Source: Acaryochloris marina S15 | GTDB lineage: Bacteria; Cyanobacteriota; Cyanobacteriia; Thermosynechococcales; Thermosynechococcaceae | Direction: 5' to 3' | Length of the DNA: 32,000 bases | NCBI RefSeq assembly: GCF_018336915.1 | Contig: NZ_CP064923.1 | Coordinates: 5,220,001-5,252,000 of the forward strand | Part shown: piece by piece, positions 2,784-32,000 of the stretch | How positions within the stretch are numbered: the first letter of the stretch is position 1 | Layout of the letters: the number at the start of each line of letters is the position of its first letter | Made by a program: the position numbers and the translations under genes | Notes under the pieces: generated by a model | What the model saw: the letters and a program-made list of their open reading frames with translations, nothing else | Database searches by the model: none | Told to the model about the DNA's origin: nothing

Positions 2784-5045
2784 ATGAATCTGAAAGCTAC
2801 AGTCTCACCGACCGACCTCGAACTGCCCACTTGGCTACAGGAATGTATGCTGGAGGTCGATGGTGCTGAAGACAGAGATGGTGTTGCAGAACAAAACCTG
2901 ATTTGTCGCGCTTTTAACTTTGGTTACCAGCTCCATGAAGGCCAGCATCGAGCTTCGGGAGAACCCTATATCGCTCATCCGGTCTCTGTTGCCGAGCTCC
3001 TAAGAGATCTAGGCGGTAGCGCAGCCATGATTGCTGCAGGCTTCCTCCACGATGTCGTTGAAGACACAGACGTCACCCCAGAAACCATCGAATCTGAGTT
3101 TGGACTAGAAGTCCGACAGCTAGTTGAAGGCGTTACGAAACTCTCTAAATTTAATTTTTCGACCAAAACCGAGCGGGAAGCCGAAAACTTTCGCCGCATG
3201 TTCTTGGCCATGGCCCAAGACATTCGCGTGATTGTAGTTAAACTAGCCGACCGTCTCCACAATATGCGGACCCTAGAGCATCTGCCCCCCGTTAAGCAGA
3301 AACGTATCGCTCAGGAAACGCGAGATGTATTTGCTCCCCTGGCCAATCGCCTCGGAATCTGGCGCTTCAAATGGGAATTAGAAGATCTAGCCTTTAAGTA
3401 TCTTGAGCCCGACACCTATCGCAGAATGCAGCAGCTGGTTGCTGATAAGCGAGTCGATCGCGAGGAACATATTGAGCAAGCGATCACCATTTTGCATGAT
3501 CGGCTTGAACCCATTTGCTCCCACCACCTAGACATTTCTGGCCGCCCTAAACATCTGTTTAGTATTAGCCAGAAAATGGAGCGGCAACAAAAGGAATTTC
3601 ATGAAATTTATGATGTCGCCGCCGTGCGAGTCATCGTCAAAACGAACGAAGAATGTTATCGTGCCCTAGCCGTTGTCCATGATTGTTTTCGTCCTATCCC
3701 TGGACGATTTAAAGACTATATTGGCTTACCGAAACCCAACCGCTACCAGTCTCTCCATACTGTCGTCATTGGCTTAGGGGGACGGCCCCTGGAAGTGCAA
3801 ATCCGCACCGAAGCAATGCACCATATTGCGGAGTATGGAATTGCCGCCCATTGGAAATACAAAGAGTCATCCAATCAGCTCGGTAAAGCCTCTTGGAGTC
3901 CTGATGACGAAAAGTTTACCTGGCTGCGTCAATTATTAGAATGGCAAAGCGATCTCAAAGACGCCCAAGAATATCTAGACAGCGTCAAAGACAACTTATT
4001 TGACAGCGAAGTTTATGTTTTTACCCCAAAAGGCGATCTGATTGATCTCACCCAAGGGGCAACCCCCGTGGATTTCGCCTATCGGATTCATACCGAAGTC
4101 GGTAACCACTGCTTTGGAGCTCGTGTCAATGGACGCATGGTCACCCTCGACACCCCCCTCGATAATGGCGACATTGTCGAAATCATGACCCAAAATAGTG
4201 CCCATCCCAGCTTGGATTGGCTCAATTTTGCTGCTAGCAATGCTGCCCGCAACCGAATTCGGCAATGGTATAAACGCTCCCACCGAGAAGAAAATATCCT
4301 CCGCGGCCGAGAGATGCTGGAAAAAGCGCTGGGGAAGAAAGGTTTCGATGCCTTACTCAAATCTGAGCCGATGCTGACGGTTGCCAATCGATGCAACTAC
4401 CAAACCCCTGAAGATTTGCTGGCTGCCCTAGGCTACGGTGAAGTGACCCTCAATTCTGTCACCAATCGGCTGCGAGAAACCATTCGGAGCCAGCAAGCCG
4501 AGGCCGAACCAGCGACCTCAGATCTAACAGACGTTAATTTACCCACTCAAGCCAGCCCCAGACCACTCCCCAGCTCCGGGGACTCTCCAATTACGGGAGT
4601 TGAAGGATTGGTCTACCATATGGCCGGTTGCTGTCATCCCGTTCCCGGTGAGCCCATTATTGGGGCGGTCACCCTCAGTAATCGAGGGATTTCTATTCAC
4701 CGCCAAGGCTGCAAAAATGTCGGCAATATTCCAGGAGATCGGCTGATTCCCGTCAGTTGGAACCCGGCCCACCCCTCCCAACAAAGCCGCCGCTATACCT
4801 ATCCCATTGAAGTTCAAATCGAAGTCATCGATCGGGTTGGTATTCTCAAAGATATTTTGACCCGTCTGACCGATAGCAGAGTCAATGTCTATAACGCCCA
4901 AGTCAAAACCTTCCCAGGGCAAACTGCGGTGATTAATCTGGGGCTACACATCGAACATTGCAATCAATTAGACCAAATTTGCGCCCAAATCCGAAAAATG
5001 AGTGATGTTCTCAAACTAAGACGTCTCAGCCAGGTTGAAGACTGA
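2784..5045 (+). CDS. spoT: Bifunctional (p)ppGpp synthetase/hydrolase, RelA/SpoT homolog
   Basis: 753-aa ORF with an ATG start. HD hydrolase motifs are HRASGEPYIAHP and GFLHDVVEDT. The synthetase region contains RPKHLFSISQKMERQ and YDVAAVRVIV. A TGS-like segment (VYVFTPKGDLIDL) and a C-terminal ACT-like domain follow. Confidence 0.95.
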   Translation: MNLKATVSPTDLELPTWLQECMLEVDGAEDRDGVAEQNLICRAFNFGYQLHEGQHRASGEPYIAHPVSVAELLRDLGGSAAMIAAGFLHDVVEDTDVTPETIESEFGLEVRQLVEGVTKLSKFNFSTKTEREAENFRRMFLAMAQDIRVIVVKLADRLHNMRTLEHLPPVKQKRIAQETRDVFAPLANRLGIWRFKWELEDLAFKYLEPDTYRRMQQLVADKRVDREEHIEQAITILHDRLEPICSHHLDISGRPKHLFSISQKMERQQKEFHEIYDVAAVRVIVKTNEECYRALAVVHDCFRPIPGRFKDYIGLPKPNRYQSLHTVVIGLGGRPLEVQIRTEAMHHIAEYGIAAHWKYKESSNQLGKASWSPDDEKFTWLRQLLEWQSDLKDAQEYLDSVKDNLFDSEVYVFTPKGDLIDLTQGATPVDFAYRIHTEVGNHCFGARVNGRMVTLDTPLDNGDIVEIMTQNSAHPSLDWLNFAASNAARNRIRQWYKRSHREENILRGREMLEKALGKKGFDALLKSEPMLTVANRCNYQTPEDLLAALGYGEVTLNSVTNRLRETIRSQQAEAEPATSDLTDVNLPTQASPRPLPSSGDSPITGVEGLVYHMAGCCHPVPGEPIIGAVTLSNRGISIHRQGCKNVGNIPGDRLIPVSWNPAHPSQQSRRYTYPIEVQIEVIDRVGILKDILTRLTDSRVNVYNAQVKTFPGQTAVINLGLHIEHCNQLDQICAQIRKMSDVLKLRRLSQVED

Positions 5046-5323
5046 AATACAGCCATGTACGCCTCCATAATCCATGGGGTGGCGAAATCAGCAGTACCAT
5101 AGGTTATGATGGAGCGAAAATCGTTAATTTTTACTAAACCTTTGCTGAGTCACCTCACTAAGATTTTAGTAAGCATTAGTGCTTAGCCAGACTATGCTAG
5201 CCTACTGAAAATGTGGGTATGGCCTGTTGATAACCGCTAAGTTGTGTGGACCTTAAATCAGGTTCTGTGGTCGGGGGGTTTATAAAAATGCAATTTATCA
5301 CTCCTAATTTCGAGAAAATCTAA

Positions 5324-5986
5324 ATGATTGGACAACCAGAATTCGTTGAAAACCCTGAGAATCGTTGCCCCGTTATTTTATTGGTGGATACCTCTAGCTC
5401 CATGAGCGGTGCCCCCATGGATGCTTTGAATAGTGGCTTAGATGCTTTCAAAGAAGCGGTCATTCAGGATGAGCAAGCCGCATTGCGGGTTGACGTCGCC
5501 ATTGTCAGTTTTGGACCTGTAGAACTTGTTCAAGATTTTGTGACCATTGACCAATTTGTACCGCTACAACTGGAAGCTCACGGTCTAACGCCTATGGGTG
5601 AGGCTCTAAGTTATGCCTTGGATTTACTAGAAAATCGCAAAGCCACCTATCGCAACAATGGCATTCAATATTATCGACCTTGGGTTTTCTTGATTACTGA
5701 CGGTGCCCCCAATCCTGACTCTCCTTGGCAGCAAGCTTCTGAACGCCTTAAGAGCGCTGAAGCCCAGCGAAAGTTATCTTTCTTTGCCGTGGGTGTCCAG
5801 GGTGCAGATATGGCCATCTTGAACCAAATTTCGCCTCCTGAGCGCCCACCCTTAATGCTAAACGGGCTAGATTTTCGGTCCATGTTTCTCTGGTTAAGTG
5901 ACTCTATGGTGCGTGTGTCTAGCAGCACCGTAGGCGGAGATATGGTTGCTTTACCCCCCGTTGGTTGGGGACAAATCGCAACTTAA
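5324..5986 (+). CDS. von Willebrand factor A domain protein, TerY/YegL-like
   Basis: 220 aa. MIDAS motif reads LLVDTSSSMSG, followed by GLTPMGEAL and FLITDGAPN. Size and layout match stand-alone TerY/YegL vWA proteins. Confidence 0.85.
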   Translation: MIGQPEFVENPENRCPVILLVDTSSSMSGAPMDALNSGLDAFKEAVIQDEQAALRVDVAIVSFGPVELVQDFVTIDQFVPLQLEAHGLTPMGEALSYALDLLENRKATYRNNGIQYYRPWVFLITDGAPNPDSPWQQASERLKSAEAQRKLSFFAVGVQGADMAILNQISPPERPPLMLNGLDFRSMFLWLSDSMVRVSSSTVGGDMVALPPVGWGQIAT

Positions 5987-6028
5987 ACATCAGAGACGGA
6001 GACTTGTGAGGGCGTCAGACTTTGATGT

Positions 6029-6901
6029 TTGGTGCATCTCCAGCTTCCGCATCCTACCTATCATTATTTTTCGCACCCAAAAGGAGAGGTTGTGGCCTGG
6101 AGAGCAATCGTTCATTCTGCAATTGGAACTCGTCATCGACAGAAACAATTGCCTTGCCAAGATTATGGCAATTATCTTGTGCAAGCGGACACCGTCATTG
6201 GTGTCGTTTCTGATGGCGCCGGCAGTGCCAAATTCTCAGATATTGGGTCTAAGCTAGCCGTCAAAACAGCGTTGGCCATGCTAGAGGAGAGAGAAGAACA
6301 CTGGTCATCCGTTGACTTAGAAACCATTAACGCTGACGCTCAAATTCTCTTCACAGAGATGGTTGAAGCGGTTGTTACTGCCTTGCGATCGCAAGCCGAG
6401 AGTGGTGAGTATCCTTTGCGAGAGCTAGGATGTACATTATTAGGCTTTATTGCGACCCCCAACTGGCTGGCCTGTATGCAGATTGGCGATGGCTTTATTG
6501 TCACCCAAGCCCAGCAAACAGCCCCCAACCTCTCTGAAACTGAACCCATACCTTCCTTTGACCTCCTCTTTGAGCCGGTTAAAGGCGAATACATTAACGA
6601 AACAGTGTTTGTCACTAGCGATAATGCGGTAGAGCATATGCAAATTGCTGTGCGTGCGGATCATCATCCCTTTGTCTGTGCAGCCACGGATGGTCTTGAA
6701 AAAGTAGCGATTCGATTTCAGGATTGGCAAGCATTCCCGCCTTTCTTCAAGCCGTTCTTTGAATGTTTACGGTCGATTTCCGATCCTGAAGAACGTCAAA
6801 CCTATGTAGAAACCTTCTTAGAATCAGATCGATTAAATGCCAAGACGGACGACGATAAGACGCTGCTGCTTTGTCTATTTAGGCCAGAGGATGACGGATG
6901 A
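6029..6901 (+). CDS. PP2C-family (PP2C_2-like) Ser/Thr phosphatase; the true start is probably GTG at 6092
   Basis: Motifs CQDYG, GVVSDGAGSA, QIGDGFI and AATDGLEK. The track start at 6029 is a TTG. An AGGAG at 6082-6086 sits 5 nt before an in-frame GTG at 6092. The stop TGA (6899-6901) overlaps the kinase ATG (6898-6900). Confidence 0.8.
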   Translation: MVHLQLPHPTYHYFSHPKGEVVAWRAIVHSAIGTRHRQKQLPCQDYGNYLVQADTVIGVVSDGAGSAKFSDIGSKLAVKTALAMLEEREEHWSSVDLETINADAQILFTEMVEAVVTALRSQAESGEYPLRELGCTLLGFIATPNWLACMQIGDGFIVTQAQQTAPNLSETEPIPSFDLLFEPVKGEYINETVFVTSDNAVEHMQIAVRADHHPFVCAATDGLEKVAIRFQDWQAFPPFFKPFFECLRSISDPEERQTYVETFLESDRLNAKTDDDKTLLLCLFRPEDDG

Positions 6902-9294
6902 CCGTTCTCAAATGCCAAGTTTCGGGTCGGACCCTATCCCTGACGAAGCAGATCGCCAGTAGCGGCGAGGGGACCGTCTGGAAAACTAGCTATCGGGGGT
7001 TTCTGGCCAAGCTCTATCACGAGCGCACGCCAGAGCGGTTTCAAAAATTACGGGTGATGATTGCCCATCCTCCCCAAGATCCGACCCTCGGGCAGAATCA
7101 CATTTCTTTGGCTTGGCCGAAGGATTTGCTAGAGAGCCAGCAGGGCGAGCCCATGGGGTTCATCATGCCTGAAGTGGGGGAAAGCGTTAAATTATCCACC
7201 ATCTATAACCCTCGACTCCGCAGTCGCAAAGCACCTCGGTTTAACTGGTATTACCTTCATACTGCAGCTCTCAATATCGCATCCAGTATGGATGCCGTGC
7301 ATAAAGAGGGTTACGTCGTCGGAGATGTCAAACCGCAAAATATCTTGGTGAATAACCAAGCCTTGGTTTCTATTATCGATACGGATTCCTTTCAGGTACA
7401 AGACCCTCATACTCGCGAAGTGTTTCGATGTTTAGTAGGTTCAGAAGGCTTTACGCCTTCCGAATTATTAGGCAAGGATTTAGCGTCGGTTGACCAGACC
7501 GAAATGCATGATCGGTTCCGATTAGGGGTGATTGTTTTTCTCCTCCTCTTTGGCGATCAGCCGTTTAAAGGCAAGTGGATTGGCCGGGGAGAGTCGCCAC
7601 AGCCCACCACATTGATTGAAAAAGGATTTTGGCCCTATGCGCCCCAAAGTTTGATTCGCCCCGGTCCCAACACGATACCGTTGTCGATTTTGCACCCGCA
7701 GCTGCAGTCCTGTTTTCATCAATGCTTTACCCAAGGCCATGGCCAACCCCATCTGCGTCCCTCTGCAGATCAATGGATGACCGCTCTGCAGAAGGCGATC
7801 GCGAGTCTCAAAACTTGCAATTTGGAGTCCAACCATCATTACAGCCAAAGTTATGGCCATTGTTACTGGTGCGATCGCAGCTCTCGCTTAGGGGTGGATA
7901 TCTTTAGTCCTAACCCGGTGATTCCCAAGCCTGCCCCCAAACGTCGCCAGCAAAAGAAGAAGAAGAGCCCTTGGGCAACCCAACCTCCGAGCCAAGCCAA
8001 CCCTGCTCTAGCAGCGGCCTATGCCCAACGGATGCAGCAGCTCCAGAATATGCAAATTCCTAATTCTGGAATCACCCGCTCTATTCTGCAAATGCCCTTA
8101 GTCCAGCGGACGAGTTGGCCACCGTCTATTTCCAATTCAGTCCTAGGGGTAATTTTATGTGGCTTTAGTTTTTTGGGATTAGGGTTACTCTTGGCCCCAG
8201 AACTGAACCCTCAAACCTTCAGCTATTGGTCAAAATCCCTGGAACGAGCTGTCGATCAGTGGCTAATCTCTAAACTCGGCACGACCTTTACGGGTGAAAC
8301 CCTGGCTCAGCTCCCCCCTTCCGGTCAATCTACAGCTGCTCAGACCATTGTAGCCCCGGCTAACGGCCAAAAAGGCCATTGGGATACCATCACCACGTTA
8401 TCGATTAGTCCCGATAGCAGCACCCTCGTCAGTGGTAGTCGGGACTTTACCCTCAAAGTCTGGAATTTAAAGACAGGGCAATTGCTCAACACCTTATCTG
8501 AGCACTACGAACCGGTGGTCTCTAGCCATATTATGAATGATGGCCAGTCCCTGATCAGCAGCAGCATTAGCGGTAAAGTCTTGCAGTGGGACTTATCCAC
8601 GGCCACCTTGCGCCGCAGCTTTGTCAATTACACCGCCATGCGTCCTGAAGGCGGGATTCGCACCACCGTCACTGATCCCAAAACCCGCATTATGGCCAGC
8701 AGTGCCTGGGGTGGCTCGATTCTGCTCTACAACCTGAAAACGGATAAAGTCACCCGCATTCCCTCGCAATTAATGGCATCTGAACAAACCATGGTGCTGA
8801 GTCCGGACGCCAAAAGCCTGGTAACCAGCAACAGCGACGGCCAAATTCAACAGTGGAATGTACAGACGGGCAAATTAGTCAGACGCTTGCCCAATACCGA
8901 GGGTTGGCAGTCTTCCGAACTCACCAGTTCCATCGCCTTAGGTCAACAAGGTAAGGTTCTCATTACGGGCAGTTGGGGCGGGAATATTGGGTTATGGAAT
9001 TTTCAAACCGGTAAGCTGATTAAGAACTTTAAGGCCCATGAGAAAATGGTGGCTTCATTAGTCGTGAGTACCGATAATCAATTTTTGATTAGCGGCGGAG
9101 AGGATCAGACCATCAAAATTTGGAGCCTCAAAACCGGCCAACTGCTCAAAACCCTGACGGATCACCAAGGCAGCATCTCGACCTTAGCCATTAGCCCCAA
9201 TAACCGCTGGTTGGTCAGTGGGAGTAGCGACCGCAGTATCAAAGTATGGAATTTAAAGACAGGGAAACTACTGCGCACCCTGCTCAACTCATAG
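6898..9294 (+). CDS. Ser/Thr protein kinase (YegI-like) fused to a single TM helix and a C-terminal seven-repeat WD40 beta-propeller
   Basis: 798 aa. Gly-loop SSGEGTVWK, Lys in LAKLYH, catalytic loop VVGDVKPQNILV, then IIDTDSF. A Cys/His cluster C-x5-HH-x6-HC-x2-C lies at aa 307-325, and a KRRQQKKKK/Q-rich linker follows. A hydrophobic helix spans aa 414-434 (nt 8137-8199). About 7 WD repeats (LKVWNL, IKIWSL, IKVWNL and others) occupy nt 8374-9291. Confidence 0.9.
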   Translation: MTVLKCQVSGRTLSLTKQIASSGEGTVWKTSYRGFLAKLYHERTPERFQKLRVMIAHPPQDPTLGQNHISLAWPKDLLESQQGEPMGFIMPEVGESVKLSTIYNPRLRSRKAPRFNWYYLHTAALNIASSMDAVHKEGYVVGDVKPQNILVNNQALVSIIDTDSFQVQDPHTREVFRCLVGSEGFTPSELLGKDLASVDQTEMHDRFRLGVIVFLLLFGDQPFKGKWIGRGESPQPTTLIEKGFWPYAPQSLIRPGPNTIPLSILHPQLQSCFHQCFTQGHGQPHLRPSADQWMTALQKAIASLKTCNLESNHHYSQSYGHCYWCDRSSRLGVDIFSPNPVIPKPAPKRRQQKKKKSPWATQPPSQANPALAAAYAQRMQQLQNMQIPNSGITRSILQMPLVQRTSWPPSISNSVLGVILCGFSFLGLGLLLAPELNPQTFSYWSKSLERAVDQWLISKLGTTFTGETLAQLPPSGQSTAAQTIVAPANGQKGHWDTITTLSISPDSSTLVSGSRDFTLKVWNLKTGQLLNTLSEHYEPVVSSHIMNDGQSLISSSISGKVLQWDLSTATLRRSFVNYTAMRPEGGIRTTVTDPKTRIMASSAWGGSILLYNLKTDKVTRIPSQLMASEQTMVLSPDAKSLVTSNSDGQIQQWNVQTGKLVRRLPNTEGWQSSELTSSIALGQQGKVLITGSWGGNIGLWNFQTGKLIKNFKAHEKMVASLVVSTDNQFLISGGEDQTIKIWSLKTGQLLKTLTDHQGSISTLAISPNNRWLVSGSSDRSIKVWNLKTGKLLRTLLNS

Positions 9295-9312
9295 CCCAGA
9301 CGGACTTACCGC

Positions 9313-10359
9313 CTATTTCCCCTGGAGATAATTTACAATTCCTTGGGCAATGGCCTCTGCCAAGCGTTTGCGATGGGCTGCCGTTCGCAATTTCGCTGCA
9401 TCAGTCCTACCCGTCAAAAATCCTAGTTCTACAAGGACAGCTGGCATCGATGATTTTCTTAAGACATAGAATCGGGCTTGGCGAATGCCACGATCGCCGA
9501 CAGAGACGGCTCGACGAATGCTGGTATGAATCGCACGGGCCAAGCGGTATCCCGTCACATAATAGTAAGTTTCTAAACCGTTGATATCAGGACGGCTGAG
9601 GCTAATGGCATTGGCATGAATACTGACAAACACATCAGCACGAGCCCCTTCAGCTTTGGCCACTCGCGGGGGTAAGTCTACTTCGCGATCGCCGGAGCGA
9701 GTCAAGACCGCATTAATCCCTCGTTTTCGCAGGAGGTTATGGACTTGGGTCGAGACATCTAAGACCACTCGTTTTTCCTGTATCCCGCCAATGCCTACTG
9801 CACCTGGGTCAGCGCCCCCATGACCGGGGTCAATAACAACGACTTTTGCCCCTGACTTAACGGGTTTAGAAACGATGGGACCGGGTGAGGAAATAGAGGG
9901 CTTGGGGATTTTGGGGGGCGGCACTCTAATGGCAATCGTCTTGCGCGAAGACTTTTTAGCATCCTTTAAGGGGAAAAATTTGGGGAGTTGGATATACCAA
10001 CGATTGGGGGCAATACCGCGCACCAGGACGCGCCGGGGGCTTAAGGTATATTTTTTGCTCAGCTCCACGACCACGCGTGTGGTTTTACGGTTATGTTGAG
10101 CCACCCGCACTTCTCGGACATACTTGCTGATTTTGCGGCGGGCTTTCAGTTTACGAAAGGTGGTATTGGGAAGGTCAATCACCAGTCGGGTCGGGTTCAT
10201 CACCACTTTTGCCCGCGGCTTAGTTGCTGAATTCGTAATCAGATCAATGCGACTTTTTTTAGAATTAAACTTCCAGTAGGTGAGCTGTCCTGCTGATGCA
10301 CTGTCCGCCCAGCAGAATAGGCTTAAAGCGAGGGGCAATACCCAGCTGGCTTTCCTCAT
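9313..10359 (-). CDS. amiC: N-acetylmuramoyl-L-alanine amidase (Amidase_3) with signal peptide and N-terminal AMIN domain
   Basis: The track ORF starts at a TTG (10392). The ATG at 10359 gives MRKASWVLPLALSLFCWADSASA, a signal peptide. An AMIN-like segment (LTYWKFN...RLVIDLPNT) and the catalytic region VVIDPGHGGADPGAVG...VSIHANA...ELGFLT follow. Confidence 0.88.
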   Translation of the reverse strand: MRKASWVLPLALSLFCWADSASAGQLTYWKFNSKKSRIDLITNSATKPRAKVVMNPTRLVIDLPNTTFRKLKARRKISKYVREVRVAQHNRKTTRVVVELSKKYTLSPRRVLVRGIAPNRWYIQLPKFFPLKDAKKSSRKTIAIRVPPPKIPKPSISSPGPIVSKPVKSGAKVVVIDPGHGGADPGAVGIGGIQEKRVVLDVSTQVHNLLRKRGINAVLTRSGDREVDLPPRVAKAEGARADVFVSIHANAISLSRPDINGLETYYYVTGYRLARAIHTSIRRAVSVGDRGIRQARFYVLRKSSMPAVLVELGFLTGRTDAAKLRTAAHRKRLAEAIAQGIVNYLQGK

Positions 10360-10668
10360 CTTGCAATTCCACAGTCGTCTCTGAGCAGGCAAATCTTTAG
10401 TCTCGAGTAGGTTGGGGGGGTAGATCCCTCTTGACTGGTAGGAGCACGATCAAGTTTCCTGTGCTGATGTTTTGCCCAGAGAAAGATGATGCTCATCGCC
10501 CGCCATCATCATGGATCATTGCTGAAGACGCAAGTCTTGCGGATCAATGGTGCTGGAGATATTAGCTGAAACACTTTACGGGCAAGCATTAACACCAAAT
10601 TCATTGTTTTCCTGACTGCTTTGCGTTTCTTAAATTTTCCACCGCTGATGGTCGTATTCTAGGCATCC

Positions 10669-13304: not shown

Positions 13305-13823
13305 ATGAGTCGAGTTAGTACAGTTAAACCGCATCTAACAGTGGATGAGGTGAAAGACAAAATTGCTACGGCTCCGACTGCCCGCTGTCAGCAAAAATGG
13401 ATGATTATTTATAACGCCCTGGTAGATCCTCGCCCAGCTATCGAAATAGCCACGCATACTGCTACTAGTCTTCGAACGGTCCATCAGGTGATTTCCGCTT
13501 ACAATCGCCTAGGAGCAGCAGCAATTGCTCCTAGGGCTAAACGGAAGAAGAATCCCGGTGCTTATCTGAGTATCGAAGAAGAGATTGAATTTTTAGAATC
13601 GTTTATTGAACGTGCTCAACAAGGTCATTTAACAACGGTTCAAGAGATCCAAACGGCCTTTGAGACTAAAGTGGAGACGTCAGTGGCACCCAGTACTATC
13701 TATCGTTTGCTAGACCGACACGGATGGCGCAAACTCATGCCTCGTCCGTCCCATCCCAATGGAAACAAAGCGGCACGAGAGGCTTTTAAAAAAACTTTCG
13801 GGGGCTGGTCCAAACCGCTGTAG
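13305..13823 (+). CDS. IS630-family transposase, OrfA (HTH / DNA-binding part)
   Basis: 172 aa. It ends shortly after an A7 run. Its C-terminal REAFKK joins OrfB in the -1 frame to give the typical FKKNF...DEGRFG continuation. Confidence 0.85.
   Translation: MSRVSTVKPHLTVDEVKDKIATAPTARCQQKWMIIYNALVDPRPAIEIATHTATSLRTVHQVISAYNRLGAAAIAPRAKRKKNPGAYLSIEEEIEFLESFIERAQQGHLTTVQEIQTAFETKVETSVAPSTIYRLLDRHGWRKLMPRPSHPNGNKAAREAFKKTFGGWSKPL
13784..13795 (+). other. Probable programmed -1 frameshift (or transcriptional slippage) site TTTTAAAAAAAC joining IS630 OrfA and OrfB
   Basis: A7 run at 13788-13794. OrfB is in the -1 frame relative to OrfA and is open from 13790. A slip on the AAA AAA codons yields ...EAFKKNFRGLVQTAVADRSAEDQRPIVIMAADEGRFG. 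Confidence 0.6.
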
Positions 13824-13855: not shown

Positions 13856-14374
13856 GTGATCATGGCAGCAGACGAAGGGCGCTTTGGTCGTCTAGGGCAA
13901 GTAAGAAGAGCTTGGTGTGCTCCTGGAATTCGACCCGAAAGTGGGCAGCAGCTTGTCCGTGAATATCTCTATGGCTATGTTGCTGTTGCTCCTGCGTTAG
14001 GAAAGATGAGTGCTTTAGTCTTACCCTTTTCCAATACTCAGATGATGAACTTATTCCTAGCACAAGTGGCGGATGAATTTTCAGACTATTTTGTGGTGAT
14101 GCAGGTCGATGGAGCGTCTTACCACACCGGAAAGAAGCTCGTCATTCCAGACAATATACGCTTGATTGTTCAGCCTCCTCGAAGTCCACAACTCAATGCT
14201 GTAGAGCATATCTGGGAGGAGGTGAAAGAAAAGCACTTCTACAATCAGGTTTTTGATTCTTTAGATGAGGTATCCGATACCTTGTGCAAGGGACTCAAAG
14301 AACTCATGGATTTACCCGATAGGCTGACTTCTATGACCAATTGGTCGTGCATCAAACAATTGTGGGGTAGGTGA
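13856..14374 (+). CDS. IS630-family transposase, OrfB (DDE_3 catalytic part); the last codons are replaced by IS1 terminal sequence
   Basis: AADEGRFG (first D), MQVDGASYHT (second D) and PPRSPQLNAVEHIWEEVK (E). The frame is open upstream to 13790. From about 14343 the ORF reads into the IS1 inverted repeat. Removing the IS1 restores ...LTSMTNFPHMRITI-stop, a typical IS630 C-terminus. Confidence 0.85.
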   Translation: MIMAADEGRFGRLGQVRRAWCAPGIRPESGQQLVREYLYGYVAVAPALGKMSALVLPFSNTQMMNLFLAQVADEFSDYFVVMQVDGASYHTGKKLVIPDNIRLIVQPPRSPQLNAVEHIWEEVKEKHFYNQVFDSLDEVSDTLCKGLKELMDLPDRLTSMTNWSCIKQLWGR

Positions 14375-14852
14375 GTATGTCATCCCAATGCCAAGCTCGC
14401 GAGGCTAGATCAGCACGTTGTGCCGCCGTTGTTTTAAGCCGACTGTGTGTCCAAATCCAATTGAAATAGCTGACCACTAATCGAGCAGTGACTTTGGTTT
14501 GCGCCCACACTTTGCCAAATTTGTTCTGGCGTCGATGCCATCGACCACTGTGCTGTCGAATAATGCCATTGGTGCGTTCGAGTCGTTGAGTTCTGTCCTT
14601 GCCAATGTAATGGTCAATCTCCCAAGGCAACACTCTTTCGTACCCCCCCCAATCGTCGCTATTCCAGTCCTTGCAATCGGTCTTACCTTCAGTGCTAGTC
14701 ACCAGTTCATTCAATAATGAATCGGTGTGCTTGCCCACACGACACGAGAGGATCACGCCGCTTGTGTTTGCCAAGGTAATCGCCATCCAACAATCACCCA
14801 TCTCTAGCTCATGGGGAAGACAGTGTTTTTGCTTTTTTTCACAAAGGACCAC
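14352..14852 (-). CDS. insB: IS1-family InsB-like DDE transposase domain (expressed as an InsAB fusion by -1 frameshift)
   Basis: 166 aa, in the -1 frame relative to insA and overlapping it by 49 nt. Contains SDDWGGYERV and RTNGIIRQHSGRWHRRQNKF, which are IS1 InsB-like. Confidence 0.88.
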   Translation of the reverse strand: MVLCEKKQKHCLPHELEMGDCWMAITLANTSGVILSCRVGKHTDSLLNELVTSTEGKTDCKDWNSDDWGGYERVLPWEIDHYIGKDRTQRLERTNGIIRQHSGRWHRRQNKFGKVWAQTKVTARLVVSYFNWIWTHSRLKTTAAQRADLASRAWHWDDILTYPTIV

Positions 14853-15559: not shown

Positions 15560-16057
15560 TTAGGGAGATGCCAACTGTATCTCTAAAGGACGAATTATCC
15601 ATATGGGAGATGAGCCACCGCCCGTATAAGACTCAACCGTCCCCTCCACCAGGACATTCTGTTGATCAAACTGGTCGGCTTCCGAAGGTGAACGTAGGGA
15701 TTGCTTATGAGTGGGAGGATAAAGTGCTACAGAGGTGCCATCGTTCAAGACTATCTTGGCTCTGATATGGGGAATAGGCGGTTGCTCGGGGTTCCAGATG
15801 CCTGCACTCGTAATATCTGGTGTTTGTTTATGGGCAACATAGCGCCCTTGTAAGGTCACCGGTTGACCCCCATATTTTTGCAGCGTTTCTTGATCCTGAA
15901 TCAGGGGCATGTTGTGACTGGTTTGGCTATCCAAAACTATCGATTTTTGAGGTGGCTCACATGCTATCAATGGATGCCCTGGCAGGGTCAACCACAAGAT
16001 TCCTAAGCTATACCCCACTGCTTGTCCCAGTTTCGGCATTGGATTAGCTGACCTCAT
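15560..16057 (-). CDS. Hypothetical exported protein, possible lipoprotein
   Basis: 165 aa with an ATG start. The N-terminal hydrophobic region ends in the lipobox-like LIAC. No recognisable family. Confidence 0.6.
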   Translation of the reverse strand: MRSANPMPKLGQAVGYSLGILWLTLPGHPLIACEPPQKSIVLDSQTSHNMPLIQDQETLQKYGGQPVTLQGRYVAHKQTPDITSAGIWNPEQPPIPHIRAKIVLNDGTSVALYPPTHKQSLRSPSEADQFDQQNVLVEGTVESYTGGGSSPIWIIRPLEIQLASP

Positions 16058-16544
16058 TGTCTTTCAGTTTTAAAATGCCCACAGACTATCCATCAAGTTC
16101 CCTCTAGAGAAAGCGAGCATTTGCTGTTGTCCCTCTCAATTTTTATGGATAGTCTCAATACAGCCTCAAAACTCTCAGGACAATTTAAACAAAAAAAGCG
16201 ACTTATTAGTCAACCGCCTTTGGCAATCTGATCAGTTTGCTATCAGAGTTCCCACATTGCTTATTTAGCAATTATTGCAGACTTAAAAATCCTTGAAAAT
16301 CATATCAAGAAAGAAAGATATTTTTATGTCATAAAACAATTTAAATCTAAATTATTTCCTGACTTTCTATGCGATTATTTGCAAGACAAGCTTTTTCTCT
16401 ATGATGACTTTTTTTAATCGAAGGGTAATCTAAGAGATGACAAATACTGCCATGACCATTAGATAAAAAGACACTCCTATTAACCTCTGAGAATCTAAAT
16501 TTAAGTATTTCGATAAGTTGCTAGTTCTCTACACATAAATAATT

Positions 16545-17675
16545 ATGAAAGCAATGATTTTGGCGGCGGGTAAAGGTACTCGCGTTCGCCCGATAACTTT
16601 CACGATTCCCAAACCCATGATTCCGATCATGCAGAAACCTGTGATGGAGTTTTTAGTCGATCTTCTCCGACAACATGGTTTTGATGAAATCATGGTGAAC
16701 GTTAGCCACTTGGCAGATGAAATCGAAAGCTATTTTAGAGATGGTCAGGGATTTGGGGTAGATATTGCTTACTCTTTTGAAGGTCGAATTGAAGACGGCA
16801 TGCTCATCGGAGATGCCGTTGGTTCAGCAGGAGGGATGCGGCGGATTCAAGATTTTTCTCCATTTTTTGACGATACATTTATTGTGCTATGTGGCGATGC
16901 CCTGATTGATTTGGACTTAAAAGCTGCAGTGGAATGGCACCGGCAAAAAGGCTCCATTGCCACTATCGTCATGAAAACAGTCGATCCAAATGATGTCTCT
17001 AGTTATGGTGTTGTAGTCACGGATGAAGAGGGCCGCGTGCAATCTTTTCAAGAAAAACCCACAATTGATGAAGCCCTTAGCAATACCATCAATACAGGTA
17101 TCTATATTTTTGAGCCTGCAATTCTAGACCTTATTCCATCTGGAGAAGAGTTTGATATTGGGGGTGATCTCTTTCCCAAACTAGTGTCTATGAATTTACC
17201 TTTTTATGGCGTTGCGATGGATTTCCAATGGGTGGATATTGGCAAGGTTCCTGATTATTGGCATGCCATTCGTAGCGTATTGATGGGCGAGGTCAAGAAT
17301 GTAGCTATCCCTGGTCATGAAGTGAAACCCAGTGTTTATACTGGCCTGAATGTTGATATCAACTGGGATAAGGTTGATATTCAAGGTCCGGTGTACATTG
17401 GTGGCATGACTCGCATTGATGAAGGCGTGAAAATTATTGGCCCAACCATGATTGGACCCAACTGCCATATTTGTAGTGGTGCAACAGTAGACAACAGCGT
17501 GATCTTCGAATATTCTCGTCTGGGCCCTGAAGCCAATCTAGTCGATAAGCTGGTGTTCGGTCGCTATTGTGTGGATAAAACAGGGGTGTCCTTGGATGTT
17601 CGCACAGCAGCTTTGGATTGGCTGATTACGGATGTTCGGCAAAATTCTCATGGCCCCACACCAGTGATGATCTAA
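16545..17675 (+). CDS. NDP-sugar pyrophosphorylase (mannose-1-phosphate guanylyltransferase-like nucleotidyltransferase) with C-terminal left-handed beta-helix
   Basis: MKAMILAAGKGTRVRPITFTIPKPMIP (G-rich NTP-binding loop), LCGDALIDLD and NTGIYIFEP. Hexapeptide-like repeats occur near the C-terminus. Confidence 0.9.
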   Translation: MKAMILAAGKGTRVRPITFTIPKPMIPIMQKPVMEFLVDLLRQHGFDEIMVNVSHLADEIESYFRDGQGFGVDIAYSFEGRIEDGMLIGDAVGSAGGMRRIQDFSPFFDDTFIVLCGDALIDLDLKAAVEWHRQKGSIATIVMKTVDPNDVSSYGVVVTDEEGRVQSFQEKPTIDEALSNTINTGIYIFEPAILDLIPSGEEFDIGGDLFPKLVSMNLPFYGVAMDFQWVDIGKVPDYWHAIRSVLMGEVKNVAIPGHEVKPSVYTGLNVDINWDKVDIQGPVYIGGMTRIDEGVKIIGPTMIGPNCHICSGATVDNSVIFEYSRLGPEANLVDKLVFGRYCVDKTGVSLDVRTAALDWLITDVRQNSHGPTPVMI

Positions 17676-25876: not shown

Positions 25877-27110
25877 TAGATCTTCAGAAAAGCATCCGTG
25901 GTTTTAGCGACACTACATCTTCATTAAATATAGTAACTAGCTCCTGATACTCTTAGCTCTGGCAAGGATTTCAAGATTATCAGAGGTCATCCAGTATGCT
26001 CGCACAATTCAAACTGCGCTTTACCCAATCAACACGCAAAAAGATTGAAGCTAAACTGCGCCAGGCATACGGGAGTCAGAATTTACGTCTGGTCAAACGT
26101 ATTAGTGCTTTATTGCAGCTTGGTCAAGGTGGTTCAGTGGCACAGGTAGCTGAAACATTGGCACTAGGCGAACAAACGATCAGGGATTATCTGCATGCAT
26201 TTCTAAAACGAGGTATCGCTAGCTTTAGATACAAAGCGTCTCAAGGACGTCGCAGCAAACTCACTCCACGGCAACGACAACAGCTCAAGTCATGGATTAA
26301 AGCAGGTCCGCTCAAAGCTGGATACGAGTGTGGTTGTTGGAGTGCATTAATGGTTCAAGACCTGATTGCGAAACGCTTCAATGTTTCCTATCATCCCCAT
26401 TATGTGAGTACTCTACTGAGGAACTTAGGCTTTTCATTTCAAAGAGCACGGTTTGTTGCAGCTCATCTCAATGAAGCCAAGCGACAAGAATGGATGACAC
26501 ACAAATGGCCTGAGATTTTGCGTTTATCAGCAGCCAAAGATGCCCTAATTTTATTTGGGGATGAGGCCAGTTTTGCGCAGTGGGGGTCGTTAAGCTACAC
26601 CTGGAGTCTTCGTGGAGACCAGCCAACATTGCCCACCAGTGGTAAACGGAAGGCTTACAAGGTGTTTGGATTAATTGATTATCATTCTGGTCAGTTCTTC
26701 TATCAAGGTCAGACGGGACGCTTCAATTCTGAAGGGTATACTGCTTTTCTAACTCAAGTACTCCAGCAGACTCACAAGCATATTATTCTCATTCAGGACG
26801 GGGCTAGATATCACACCAGTAAAGCAACTAAGCAGTTCTTTGACCAGCAATCCGCTCGCCTTACTCCTTTCCAATTACCCACATATTCTCCTGACTTCAA
26901 CCCAATTGAATTCTTGTGGAAGAAACTCAAAAAACGCAGCACACACCTACGGTTCTTCAAGCAATTTGATGACTTAGTTCAGCAGGTCGATGAGGGGCTA
27001 CTGTACTTTAGTCAGACTCCCAATGAAATTACTGTCTTAATGGGCAAATATTGCAAAACCTTGGGTACACAAGCTGCCTAGCTAATCACGGATCTTTATC
27101 TGTAGATCTA
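25877..27110 (+). mobile_element. IS630-family insertion sequence (1234 bp), apparently intact, inserted into the IS1634 transposase gene
   Basis: The inverted repeats are TAGATCTTCAGAAAAGCATCCGTGGTTTTAGCG (left) and the reverse complement of the right end, TAGATCTACAGATAAGATCCGTGATTAGC. A TA target duplication lies at 25875-25876 and 27111-27112. Confidence 0.88.
25996..27081 (+). CDS. IS630-family transposase (single ORF, HTH plus DDE_3)
   Basis: 361 aa. ILFGDEASF (D), IQDGARYHTS (D) and LPTYSPDFNPIEFLWKKLK (E). The stop codon lies inside the right inverted repeat. Confidence 0.93.
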   Translation: MLAQFKLRFTQSTRKKIEAKLRQAYGSQNLRLVKRISALLQLGQGGSVAQVAETLALGEQTIRDYLHAFLKRGIASFRYKASQGRRSKLTPRQRQQLKSWIKAGPLKAGYECGCWSALMVQDLIAKRFNVSYHPHYVSTLLRNLGFSFQRARFVAAHLNEAKRQEWMTHKWPEILRLSAAKDALILFGDEASFAQWGSLSYTWSLRGDQPTLPTSGKRKAYKVFGLIDYHSGQFFYQGQTGRFNSEGYTAFLTQVLQQTHKHIILIQDGARYHTSKATKQFFDQQSARLTPFQLPTYSPDFNPIEFLWKKLKKRSTHLRFFKQFDDLVQQVDEGLLYFSQTPNEITVLMGKYCKTLGTQAA

Positions 27111-28592
27111 TAGTGCATTTCTTAACTGTCGTTGTCCTAAGCTGTAGACCATCAAACACAAGGCCATGATCATGGCTAAGGCAGCGATACGCCGAGGTGT
27201 CTTCAGGAAAACACTAGAGGCAAAGAAGAGTGGATCTTTGATAAAGCGAAAGCCTCCTTCACACGCCTGCTGGTTCTTATACTCGCGCAGAATATCATCA
27301 TTGCTCCATTGCTCTTGTTCCAAGAGATTGGTGGCTAAGATGAAACGACCTGCTTGCCGCCGATAGCGTTCGATGACTGGCTCATTGAGGGTTAAGGTAG
27401 CCTCAATAGAATAGGTGTAGTGAGTCACAACCGTTGCTTTTGTCGGTCGTCCAGCCTTTGAATAATGAGGTTTTTTGTGGATTTTGAGATCGTCAAGGGT
27501 GTGATACCTGAGGATTTTGCCAAAATCTTGGGCTGCAGCTAAAGCATCTGCAGGGCACAAGAAGGTCTGTTTGCAGAGGGTTTTAAGTGCAGTAGTTTTT
27601 TGGCTAAACGCCTGATCAATCCGCTTTTGCACTTGTTTGAGTCCAGAGTCTCTGCGAGCTTTACTTTCAACCACCAGCCACCGTTGTTGAATCTCTCCAT
27701 AGGTACTACATACTTCGACAAAGCTATAGCCGTTGAGAGCACTGGGGTGAAACTGTGAACCCGGCAGCCCTTGTAATAAGTCTTGGGCTGCCGTTGAACT
27801 TGCTGGAACTCGGCTAATCCAAGATGTACTTCCTAATGCTTGCAGATTGTCGGCACTGTAGAGGGCACTATCAGCAACAATCACCTCTGGCTGTTGCTGA
27901 CTCCACTGTTGCTTAAATTCATGGATGATAGGCACAAACGTACTTTTGTCCGCATCATTACCGTTGCCCACTTGTAAAAATAAAGGAATACCCCCGTCCC
28001 CACTCACCAGTAGGTTCAATACAAACTGCTTGAGATCACGACGATTGTCCCGTGAGTAGCCGTAGGTGATTTTCACGGGTATCGGCTCCTCTGATTCAGC
28101 CAGTGCAGGGGAGGGGGACTCAGGTGCAGAGGGGGATTCGTCTGACGCCTCAACCTGTGGTTTATCTAAGTATTGCCCCTCAACACTAAGGCTTGTCGCA
28201 TCTAGATGCGCACACCTTAGAGCTACATCGAATTTCTGAACGACTGCCATTGCCACATGGATAAATATCTGGGTCACACCATAGGCATAGAGCTTGTCGA
28301 GGACTCGACCGATACGGGTATCGTTGAGGTGCTCTGGCAGTACACCTTGACCGAGTAAGTGCTCGGTTGCTTTGCTTTCGAAAAACTCACTAAATAAGTA
28401 CAATGGAGCACTCAAAAAGCCCATACCATTTAGAATCAGGGCTTTGACAACTTGACCACAACTAACATTCTCTTGCTCGTGAGTACCTAATAATCGATCC
28501 ACTATTTCGACAATGCCGATCTCATCGACGATACCGGCAATAATACCGAGATGGTCAATATCCTGAACGTCTATCTCTTGAGGTGAATACAT
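27108..28592 (-). pseudogene. IS1634-family transposase, N-terminal 494 codons, truncated by the IS630 insertion
   Basis: MYSPQEIDVQDIDHLGIIAGIVDEIGIVEIVDRLLG (DUF4277-type N-terminus) is followed by a DDE region. The ORF terminates at a TAG formed by the IS630 terminus. Confidence 0.88.
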
Positions 28593-30214: not shown

Positions 30215-32000
30215 CTAGAGTCGCTCTAGGCGATCGCGCAAAATCTCAGCCTGCTTTTCGGCTTCAGCCAGGGTATCACGAGCGCCCTGAACCACTGCGG
30301 GTGGGGCTTGCTCCACAAAATTGGCATTGTTCAACCGACCACTACTGGACCGAATTTCTGCGTCTGCTTTTTTCAGATCCTTATTTAGCTTGGCTTTCAG
30401 GATCTCAACGTCCACTACACCGCTAAGAGGTAGAAGGACTTGGACCGTACCAACCACACCAATGATGGTTTGTTTAACTTCCCCTTCTACTGCTGGAGTG
30501 ATGCTCAAAGACTCTACTCTCGCCAGATCCTGGAGATAGGTTTGACCGGCTGTGAGGATTTGTCGTTCGCGATCGCTTTCGCTTTGCAAAATCACTTTAA
30601 TGGGCTGCTTTGGCTTAATGCTGGCTTCTGCTCGTAAGTTGCGAATGGTGCGAATGGTCTCAATGACTAGCTCAAACTGCTCTTCTAGCCCCGGATCAAC
30701 CCAGGCTGTGAAATCAGCGGAATTTGGCTCTGGCTGTGAATTTTTAGGTATAAAGTCATCTTCGTCGTGGGGCTCTGGTTCGACTGCCGCAGGCTCTGCC
30801 AAAGCCAAATCCCCACCTAAGGCTTCCGCCGTTGTCTCCAAAGTCTTGGGATCACTCAGCAATGGCAAAATTTCATCTTTCTTCTTTTGCAAGGATTCGA
30901 CCCAGGCTTGGCGATCGTCATACCAGAGCAGACGCCGATAGGCAAAGTTCAGAGAATAGCCCAAACCAATTAATTCAAAGGCGCTGCCTAATAGGGGAAC
31001 GTGATTAATCGCACCTAATACTGCTGCCGTAACTGCAAGACTGATAATACCCAGGAAGAAAACACAGACCCACAGTAAGACCGTTTGATTTACATCTAGA
31101 AAACGGCCGAGGTACGCTGGCAACTCGCCAAAGATATGGACGGCATCTCGCCAGCTAAAATCATGAACTTCAGGGTCTGGCTCCAAGGTCTCATCCCTCG
31201 TTTGAGCGGTCGATTCTGTCTCCGGTGCAGCAGATGGCTCAGGAGCTGCCGCTGCCTCTTCTACAGGAACATCAGCCATATCTGAAGAAAGCGGCACCGT
31301 TTCTGTCACTAATTGAATATCAGCTGCTTCTGGGTAGGGCTGACTGGCTAAATATTGTTCTGAGGTCGGTTGAGTCAGGGTCTGCCAAATCTCTTCCGTA
31401 ATATGGGGCATAAACGGATGAAAGAGCTTCAGCGTTCCCTCTAATACATAGGCAAGGGTTTGCTGGGCCACACGCTGGGAAGTAGTACCTTCCTGACGCA
31501 GTCGGGGCTTCACCAGTTCGATATACCAGTCACAGAAATCACCCCAAATAAATTCATACAGACCTTTCGAAGCTTCACCCAAACCATAGGCATCCACCTG
31601 ATTGCGGGTTTGCTGCACCAGGCGATGATATCGGGATAAAATCCAACGATCCGCCAATTCTAAATCAGCAATAGCAGGCTGCCCAAGCTGCTCGGGAGTG
31701 TGCCCATTCAGATTCATCAACACAAATCGAGAGGCATTCCATAACTTATTAGCAAAGTTACGAGAAGCTTCTACAGAAGTAGATTCATCCGTCTTGCGGT
31801 TATATTCCAAGCGAATATCTTGCCCTGCACCAGCCACCTCTCGGATCAGGGTATAGCGGAGGGCATCGGTGCCATATTTGTCGATCAAGATCAACGGATC
31901 AATCCCGTTATTGGACGACTTCGACATTTTTTTATTATTTTCGTCCCGCACCAAGCCATGGATATAGACATCCTTAAAAGGCATCTCTCCAGTAAAGTGG
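30215..32000 (-). CDS. valS: Valyl-tRNA synthetase, C-terminal two thirds or so (the 5' end lies beyond the right window edge), carrying a CAAD insertion
   Basis: The frame is open to nt 32000 (...[19 protein letters not shown]). It contains KMSKS, an anticodon-binding region ([16 protein letters not shown]) and a C-terminal coiled coil ([28 protein letters not shown]). Confidence 0.95.
30701..31306 (-). other. CAAD-type insertion (about 200 aa, with a two-helix membrane hairpin) within ValRS
   Basis: It lies between [10 protein letters not shown] and [25 protein letters not shown]. An acidic/Ala-Pro-rich linker leads to two hydrophobic helices, [26 protein letters not shown] and [21 protein letters not shown] (nt 30938-31084), followed by another acidic linker. 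Confidence 0.8.

Follow-up and report, generated by a model that had tools for sequence, protein, structure and literature searches.

A cyanobacterial vWA–PP2C–kinase triad related to E. coli YegL–PphC–YegI with a predicted receptor-type WD40 kinase

Introduction

What is the role of a vWA–PP2C–kinase gene triad that resides among core genes of a cyanobacterial chromosome, when the same gene architecture serves phage defence elsewhere? The question is raised by a locus of Acaryochloris marina S15 (contig NZ_CP064923.1, positions 5,220,001 to 5,252,000; this whole stretch of 32,000 nucleotides is called the window). At positions 5324-9294 of the window, three co-directional open reading frames (ORFs) encode a von Willebrand factor A (vWA) protein, a PP2C_2 phosphatase and a YegI-type Ser/Thr kinase. 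A TerY-like vWA protein, a PP2C and a kinase with a C-terminal zinc ribbon also make up the TerY-P triad (Anantharaman, Iyer & Aravind 2012) and the anti-phage TerY-P system (Gao et al. 2020; both in PMC11090510), which, in the summaries given in PMC7699616 and PMC11090510, protects against T7-like phages. An earlier note on this DNA, made from the sequence alone, regarded the biological role of such triads as not established. For the architecture this statement is outdated, as the anti-phage form has been validated (PMC7699616, PMC11090510), whereas it still holds for the subfamily of E. coli YegL/PphC/YegI, whose physiological role is still without assignment (PMC13232886). The triad is widespread, yet a single demonstration of phage defence, made with a sister form, provides its only known role in any organism.

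Here we propose, with a probability of roughly 0.6, that the triad represents a group of cyanobacterial orthologs of the E. coli YegL–PphC–YegI (TerY-P) module that reside in the chromosome, and that it acts as a self-contained switch for reversible Ser/Thr phosphorylation in receptor-kinase form. The architecture is known, and the supposed elaborations of this copy are ancestral or clade-wide; what is new is a WD40-bearing paralog clade of the YegL/PphC/YegI module, which we predict to be of the receptor type. Cyanobacterial members are informative in several respects, i.e. vertical inheritance, strong constraint, paralogs with different sensor modules, and one clade that lies between spoT and a septal amidase gene; their comparison makes an unusually clean case that such a module can act as a constrained, resident signalling device.

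Three homologs of the YegL–PphC–YegI proteins

Pfam searches assigned all three proteins to the families that the earlier note had proposed (VWA, 6e-10; PP2C_2, 7e-48; Pkinase, 2.6e-11 at aa 115-225 of the kinase, with WD40, 2.6e-41, at its C-terminus), and the ORFs of the three co-directional genes lie at the coordinates given there. Each protein has a counterpart in the yegI-yegL region of E. coli K-12 according to BLASTP. The vWA protein matches YegL with 50% identity (E 1e-67), the phosphatase matches PphC (YegK) with 32% identity in an alignment that begins at PphC Met1 (E 1e-40), and the kinase matches YegI with 30% identity across its catalytic domain and the Cys/His segment behind it (E 2e-39). 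Together with the shared gene order vWA–PP2C–kinase, these pairwise homologies bear out the assignment to the TerY-P architecture, with E. coli yegI/pphC/yegL as an example. The module comprises the following features (.. or - between first and last position; strand in brackets):

5324..5986 (+): YegL/TerY-like stand-alone vWA protein, 220 aa, cytoplasmic, without signal peptide
5387..5401 (+): DxSxS motif (D22 T S24 S S26) of the metal ion-dependent adhesion site (MIDAS), completed by T89 and D126
5987..6091 (+): vWA–PP2C spacer of 105 nt with Shine-Dalgarno sequence AGGAG at 6082-6086, read from the sequence
6092..6901 (+): PphC-like PP2C_2 phosphatase, 269 aa from GTG 6092
6029-6901 (+): maximal PP2C ORF from TTG 6029, 290 aa
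6898..6901 (+): ATGA overlap of phosphatase stop and kinase start, from ORF coordinates
6898-9294 (+): whole kinase ORF, 798 aa
6898..7815 (+): YegI-type Ser/Thr kinase catalytic domain, aa 1-306 (Pkinase match, BLASTP to YegI)
7816..7872 (+): CHCC zinc ribbon/knuckle (C307, H313, C322, C325), from alignments and an AlphaFold2 (AF2) model
7915..8133 (+): disordered polybasic/Q-rich juxtamembrane linker, aa 340-412 (AF2 per-residue confidence, pLDDT, <50)
8134..8193 (+): single Gly-rich transmembrane (TM) helix, aa 413-432 (Kyte-Doolittle 2.47)
8389..9282 (+): seven-blade WD40 β-propeller, aa 498-795, predicted extracytoplasmic (Pfam WD40, AF2, Foldseek)

The junctions between the genes resemble those in E. 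coli. The ATGA overlap, from which translational coupling had been deduced earlier, follows from the ORF coordinates, and E. coli strains (B and O157) have the same overlap between pphC and yegI (bioRxiv 10.1101/819920); hence, the coupling is conserved across phyla. The gap between the vWA and phosphatase genes measures 42 nt with TTG 6029 and 105 nt with GTG 6092 as start codon, which reproduces both ends of the range given before. Most likely the true start is GTG 6092, which yields the 105-nt spacer, because AGGAG is located 5 nt upstream, the codon aligns with Met1 of E. coli PphC, the preceding 21 residues are unconserved across 72 homologs, and an independent gene call also gave 269 aa. 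An Rfam scan of positions 4500-10500 at E<=0.1 returned no match, the spacer included, and terminator signals in the spacer did not rise above chance.

Of the three proteins, the vWA protein is the best conserved, with 61-98% identity over the cyanobacterial loci described below, and the PP2C (41-90%) ranks below both the vWA protein and the kinase domain (51-97%). The window protein has all five MIDAS residues (D22, S24, S26, T89 and D126), which are invariant among 71 sequences, E. coli YegL included; the site is thus intact as first described. The AF2 model (pLDDT 83) adopts the canonical vWA fold, and Foldseek matched it to vWF A3, complement C2a and integrin I-domains. The C-terminal motif WLSxSMxRVSS was considered as a phospho-acceptor, but it forms the last helix of the vWA fold in the model and its conservation is probably structural. 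In the phosphatase, the metal-binding PP2C motifs SDGAGS, GDG, TDG and DDDKT are present and conserved.

Sequence searches of the Protein Data Bank (PDB) with the three proteins revealed no solved structure of any triad-family member. The PP2C had no match, and the kinase retrieved generic kinase cores only. A match of the vWA protein to TALE repeat proteins (~1e-9) contained zero significant stretches and was discarded as a repeat-summing artefact on the motif AHGLTP.

Kinase domain, zinc ribbon and C-terminal propeller

The catalytic residues of the kinase are K38, D143 and N148, with D161-T-D163 replacing DFG. K38, D143 and the D-T-D motif correspond to K39, D141 and D159-S-D161 of YegI and are invariant in all alignments; in YegI, K39, D141 and the D-S-D motif in the DFG position are essential (bioRxiv 10.1101/819920). 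Both kinases thus have D-x-D for DFG, and both carry a CHCC zinc ribbon after the kinase domain and are membrane-anchored. They differ in the catalytic-loop Asn, which YegI lacks whereas the window kinase keeps the canonical N148. The NCBIfam model PknB_PASTA_kin matched the kinase core only (3.5e-5), and neither Pfam nor NCBIfam found a PASTA domain in the kinase. A copy at 2.54 Mb of NC_009925.1 (A. marina MBIC11017) encodes a kinase with 94% identity, and an identical protein is present in a Logan assembly.

The earlier note had listed the Cys/His cluster, C307-x5-H313H314-x6-H321C322-x2-C325, among features that this kinase had gained. However, all aligned cyanobacterial homologs without exception, and E. 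coli YegI as well, have C307, H313, C322 and C325, so that the cluster is, judging from these alignments, the ancestral CHCC zinc ribbon of the family. The AF2 model, which is confident for aa 1-335, shows the ribbon as two short strands and a helix, and a zinc ribbon on TerY-P kinases has already been described (PMC11090510). A second Cys/His site (C272, C276, H281) was not invariant in a larger alignment and is not claimed.

The other parts that had been named, i.e. the polybasic/Q-rich linker, the TM helix and the seven-blade WD40 propeller, are all present according to sequence, AF2 and Foldseek. In the AF2 model the disordered linker (340-412) is followed by the TM helix, a helix at 439-459, a disordered stretch, and 28 strands over aa 498-795 that amount to seven blades. 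The TM helix (aa 413-432) is the sole hydrophobic segment of the kinase. The best PDB match of the propeller is 5yzv, the seven-bladed WD40 domain of Thermomonospora PkwA (Foldseek E 1e-26, TM-score 0.91). PkwA of T. curvata likewise combines a bacterial Ser/Thr kinase with a WD40 propeller of seven blades at its C-terminus, but the propellers share only 27% identity. PkwA is not known to be a YegI-type kinase or to belong to a vWA/PP2C triad.

Distribution and phylogeny of the triad

For the locus sample, one genome per GTDB species was scanned, the best 80 of 305 relatives were kept, and 78 loci were retained. According to tblastn and ORF clustering, the order vWA–PP2C–kinase is kept in about 70 of the 78 loci, and the exceptions are mostly contig ends. 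Loci with conserved order occur in Acaryochloris, Thermosynechococcaceae, Leptolyngbya-like taxa, Microcoleus, Chroococcidiopsis and Nostocales, and this synteny excludes chance adjacency. Over the 78 loci, no fourth gene is conserved with the triad, and no FHA protein is conserved either.

We refer to the arrangement kinase, zinc ribbon, disordered linker, one TM helix and WD40 (about 720-830 aa in total) as type A. In a neighbour-joining tree of the kinase domain, type A forms one group, with sequences from Acaryochloris, Thermosynechococcaceae, Petrachloros, Stenomitos, Lyngbya confervoides, Altericista and Aphanocapsa, and the linker (aa 340-412) cannot be aligned outside this clade. Whereas the TM helix and WD40 tail had been taken as a difference of this particular copy, the whole clade has them, with about 100 type-A orthologs in the protein database. 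In Cyanothece sp. PCC 7425, the vWA protein shares 80% identity with that of the window, and this strain probably has a type-A kinase as well. As judged from the tree, the TM helix plus seven-blade WD40 tail defines a monophyletic paralog clade. The commoner form is short (450-510 aa) and resembles the two-pass YegI in its two C-terminal TM helices. Altericista, Petrachloros and a Thermosynechococcaceae metagenome-assembled genome (MAG) contain the WD40 form and the short form at separate loci (L012/L065, L007/L075 and L008/L079, respectively). Because both forms co-occur in single genomes, they are paralogs. A complete second triad is found only at the Altericista locus L065; L075 is without a PP2C match and L079 without a vWA or PP2C match. 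Genomes with both kinase forms provide a natural system to ask about cross-talk.

The Nostocales kinases have yet another order, with the WD40 domain between the zinc ribbon and C-terminal TM helices. As this form is nested inside the other clade, it points to a separate acquisition of WD40. The kinase tree broadly tracks taxonomy. Family-wide, at least 3,042 cluster representatives (50% identity) have the kinase module (E<=1e-30), in every case with the kinase at the N-terminus. Total length ranges from 348 to 1086 aa, and the tails among 76 close representatives include TPR (13), WD40 (2-3), PDZ (3) and GUN4 (3) modules. From these domain assignments, variable C-terminal modules are the rule in the YegI-type kinase family.

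Genomic context and selection

The genes and sites around and within the module are:

2784..5045 (+): spoT/rel, bifunctional (p)ppGpp synthetase/hydrolase, upstream neighbour (Pfam HD_4, RelA_SpoT, TGS, ACT)
9313..10392 (-): AmiC-type cell-wall amidase (AMIN + Amidase_3, Pfam), convergent, stop 18 nt from the kinase stop
6385..6392: HIP1 site (GCGATCGC) in the PP2C gene; two further sites in the kinase gene at 7795-7802 and 7871-7878

The Pfam matches of both flanking genes establish that the module lies between spoT and amiC, as had been proposed. In 12 type-A loci from several families spoT is immediately upstream of the triad, while the genes further out differ, and in nine type-A loci the amidase gene is downstream. 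The block spoT→vWA→PP2C→kinase(←amiC) is kept in Acaryochloris, a Thermosynechococcaceae MAG, Stenomitos, Lyngbya confervoides and Altericista, all with different outer flanks. In Nostocales, the triad is near the atp operon in about 14 loci (e.g. L020, L023-L025 and about ten others), a few kb from the ATP synthase genes.

The window contains 14 HIP1 sites, as opposed to an expectation of 0.34; with three of them inside it, the module matches the host in HIP1 density. The GC content of the module is unremarkable and host-like as well. For the analysis of selection, ω was calculated as pairwise dN/dS against Acaryochloris relatives; we relied on the two closest pairs, as dS was saturated in distant ones:

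vWA: 0.01-0.02
Kinase domain: 0.013-0.035
Propeller: 0.05-0.075
PP2C (fastest-evolving member): 0.09-0.18
Linker: about 0.1
spoT: 0.03
amiC: 0.03-0.06

Every part of the module is under strong purifying selection. The pairwise dN/dS values over the module parts gave no sign of diversifying selection, and the propeller is free of near-identical repeats that would indicate homogenisation. HIP1 sites, conserved position, host-like GC and purifying selection all speak for the view, already taken before, that the module is long-resident rather than recently acquired.

Ter-family domains were found neither in the 20 of 22 window ORFs >=150 aa that were scanned nor among the conserved neighbours in the 78 loci. 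The absence of adjacent terD/terZ/terC-type genes, noted previously, is therefore real, but it does not distinguish this copy, since E. coli yegIKL is also without them. Among the same scanned ORFs and conserved neighbours, the window copy differs from other TerY-P triads in having no Ter, CoCoNuT or restriction genes nearby. Related triads form part of CoCoNuT and GTPase conflict systems (PMC11090510; PMC7159879); an association with Ter or DNA-processing genes is frequent in the TerY-P family and not obligatory.

Two observations concern the surroundings of the kinase gene. The convergent kinase and AmiC stops are only 18 nt apart (9295-9312); a terminator-like hairpin was looked for here and none was detected, so that the transcripts may overlap. 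In Nostocales, a VapC/PIN-like plus antitoxin-like pair of small genes is often directly downstream of the kinase gene.

A putative receptor-type phosphorylation switch

The orientation of the type-A kinase was assessed with 25 orthologs. All 25 have one hydrophobic stretch of 19-20 residues and no second. Summed over the orthologs, the 20 residues before the TM helix contain 74 K/R and 5 D/E, and the 20 residues after it 42 K/R and 65 D/E. These flank charges fit the positive-inside rule with an N-in/C-out orientation. Furthermore, the last 330 residues contain zero Cys in 25 of 25 orthologs, as opposed to 6-9 Cys in the kinase half. The propellers of Nostocales, which precede C-terminal TM helices and are predicted to be cytoplasmic, contain 0-5 Cys. 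On account of the charge bias and the lack of cysteines, the type-A propeller is probably extracytoplasmic, in the periplasm or thylakoid lumen, and the protein a receptor-type kinase.

This plan is familiar from the receptor-type eSTK/PP2C pairs (eSTK, Ser/Thr kinase of eukaryotic type) PknB-PstP, PrkC-PrpC and StkP-PhpP, in which a cytoplasmic Hanks-type kinase is joined through a single TM helix to an extracytoplasmic repeat sensor and is co-transcribed with a PP2C that reverses its action. The layout of the window kinase (predicted N-in kinase, one TM helix, C-terminal propeller, PP2C gene in an operon-like array), the charge bias and the absence of Cys all agree with such a PASTA-type receptor plan. 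What differs is the sensor, a WD40 propeller in place of PASTA, the divergent YegI-family kinase, and the vWA protein as an obligatory third partner.

It is reasonable to propose the following course of events. The three genes would be transcribed as one unit, with phosphatase and kinase translationally coupled via ATGA. The kinase would reside in the membrane, with catalytic domain and zinc ribbon in the cytoplasm and the propeller beyond the TM helix in the periplasm or thylakoid lumen. An extracytoplasmic ligand on the propeller might then alter self-association and autophosphorylation of the kinase, and the PphC-like PP2C would strip the phosphates and reset the switch. The vWA protein could bind an acidic or phosphorylated partner at its MIDAS metal site and thus serve as adaptor or output of the switch. 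For the enzymatic steps we infer as much from the E. coli homologs: YegI is an inner-membrane protein that autophosphorylates and prefers Mn2+, both E. coli enzymes are Mn2+-dependent or Mn2+-preferring (bioRxiv 10.1101/819920), and PphC removes phosphate from YegI in vitro (PMC13232886, which cites Rajagopalan et al. 2018). Ligand gating, like any physiological role, is conjectured.

The part assigned to the vWA protein is suggested by how extremely it is conserved, by the invariance of its MIDAS and by analogy with other systems. In Pseudomonas PpkA/PppA of the type VI secretion system, in Sulfolobus ArnB/ArnA with the ArnC/D kinases, and in Deinococcus DRA0331-0334, a vWA domain is paired with reversible Ser/Thr phosphorylation, the likeness being at the domain level. 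Archaeal ArnB is a vWA protein that serves both as kinase substrate and as phospho-dependent partner. These sets differ from the triad in that they include an FHA reader or a vWA domain fused to the kinase, whereas the triad has no conserved FHA protein beside it; for the Deinococcus operon, see bioRxiv 10.64898/2026.01.23.701218.

As to the cellular context, the triad may be connected with envelope or growth-state control, and the fact that spoT and amiC stay linked to it hints at, but does not prove, a tie to growth state or the septal wall. In a speculative extension, which we consider doubtful, type A would be a housekeeping sensor of envelope or growth state whose propeller reads a periplasmic or lumenal cue, and the vWA adaptor would modulate SpoT-dependent (p)ppGpp and/or AmiC-dependent septal peptidoglycan cleavage. 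If this were true, it would be the first physiological role for the YegL/PphC/YegI module, and the 'TerY-P defence' architecture would have begun as, or would double as, a core signalling device.

Alternative explanations

Several points weigh against a resident receptor-type switch. Counts from promoter and terminator scans did not exceed what shuffled sequences led one to expect and are uninformative on a single operon. The deepest type-A branch (L015-L018) is without spoT/amiC linkage, and this linkage may be historical. In literature searches, no characterised cyanobacterial homolog was found. The other points lend weight to one of two alternatives, namely phage defence and a cytoplasmic propeller.

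In the first alternative, the triad would be an anti-phage TerY-P system (Gao et al. 2020) whose kinase senses infection via WD40 and aborts or blocks it by phosphorylating targets of the host or the phage, while the phosphatase holds the system inactive as long as the cell is uninfected. The three-gene architecture is the same as in the validated system against T7-like phages (PMC7699616; PMC11090510), and the same triad has been linked to actinobacterial GTPase conflict systems (PMC7159879). The swapping of C-terminal modules in the kinase family (WD40, TPR, PDZ, GUN4) recalls the sensor variability of conflict systems, and in PADLOC the kinase weakly matches the defence kinases PD-T4-6 and mad6; together with MkoA, these generic defence kinases are its only hits. 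However, the vWA protein and PP2C match no PADLOC model even at E<=10, the TerY model included, for which E. coli YegL itself reaches only E=0.032. The validated defence system has an OB-fold as C-terminal module of its kinase (PMC11090510), whereas the C-terminal part of the window kinase consists of zinc ribbon, linker, TM helix and WD40. Domain scans of the window ORFs found no defence genes adjoining the triad, and the viral contigs of IMG/VR yielded only two matches to the kinase core, at 27% identity, so that the family is essentially absent from them and has no close relatives there. In contrast to the defence form, the window copy is vertically inherited under very strong purifying selection, its vWA protein being more conserved than SpoT, and its place on the chromosome, among core genes, is constant across families. 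An extracytoplasmic sensor would also be ill-suited to intracellular phage components. We therefore consider phage defence unlikely, albeit the likeliest of the alternatives. Selection, HIP1, GC, core neighbours, the persistent spoT–triad–amiC block and the near-absence from IMG/VR favour a vertically inherited, resident regulatory module over a mobile phage-defence cassette. The locus thus cautions against labelling every vWA–PP2C–kinase triad as anti-phage defence.

In the second alternative, the triad would function as described, but with a cytoplasmic propeller that recruits cytoplasmic substrates, presumably as in Nostocales, and with the hydrophobic segment as an anchor or re-entrant helix. 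It is sequence statistics from which the outside location has been derived, and the contrast in Cys content is modest, as 7 of 24 Nostocales propellers are likewise without Cys. The AF2 model of the TM helix has low confidence, and WD40 repeats are typically cytoplasmic scaffolds. In Nostocales, the position of WD40 between zinc ribbon and C-terminal TM helices puts it towards the cytoplasm. In E. coli YegI both termini are intracellular, and topology thus varies within the family; that protein is two-pass, whereas the window kinase has one TM helix and a 300-aa WD40 propeller. On the other hand, the single hydrophobic stretch and the Cys-free propeller are found in 25 of 25 orthologs, the flank charges consistently fit the positive-inside rule, and according to the kinase tree the two WD40 forms have separate origins and may therefore differ in location. 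On balance, a cytoplasmic propeller appears improbable, and the receptor-like form, with its probably external propeller, suggests a concrete experimental handle.

We consider a metal- or tellurite-type stress sensor still less probable. Here, the MIDAS would report intracellular divalent metal, and a Mn2+-dependent kinase and phosphatase would relay the signal by phosphorylation. Such a metal-sensing phosphorylation switch was the original TerY-P proposal, as it is quoted in PMC11090510 from Anantharaman et al. 2012, and it would be in keeping with the invariant MIDAS and with the dependence on or preference for Mn2+ of both E. coli enzymes (bioRxiv 10.1101/819920). Yet neither TerD, TerC, TerZ nor other metal-resistance domains were found in the scanned window ORFs >=150 aa or among the conserved neighbours of the 78 loci, and a metal sensor leaves the external propeller and the other protein-binding C-terminal modules unexplained. 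Finally, adjacency of the three genes by chance and without joint function, for which only the 105-nt vWA–PP2C spacer could be cited, is ruled out by the constant order and direction of the genes in about 70 of 78 loci, in many families and in E. coli, by the PP2C/kinase ATGA overlap, and by the dephosphorylation of YegI by PphC in vitro (PMC13232886).

Other features of the window

At the left edge, positions 2-2536 on the minus strand encode, by six-frame translation, the N-terminal half of DnaE (DNA polymerase III alpha), which runs off the edge and ends in a split-intein N-fragment; this is the well-known cyanobacterial dnaE-n split-intein gene. At the other end, positions 30215-31984 (minus) encode the C-terminal part of a valyl-tRNA synthetase with a CAAD domain (PF14159), which is a cyanobacterial membrane-anchoring insertion.

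The genome is rich in insertion sequences (IS), and the triad region itself is without IS genes. IS630-like HTH and DDE_3 halves lie in separate frames at 13305-13823 and 13856-14374, next to an IS1-like fragment at 14352-14852 (minus). Further downstream, there is an intact HTH+DDE_3 transposase gene at 25996-27081 and a DUF4277+DDE_Tnp_1 transposase gene at 27108-28592 (minus). The GC content dips to 0.39 at 16001-17000, as compared with about 0.48 elsewhere, around the start of a sugar-nucleotidyltransferase gene (16545-17675), and this dip may mark a recently acquired sugar-modification gene.

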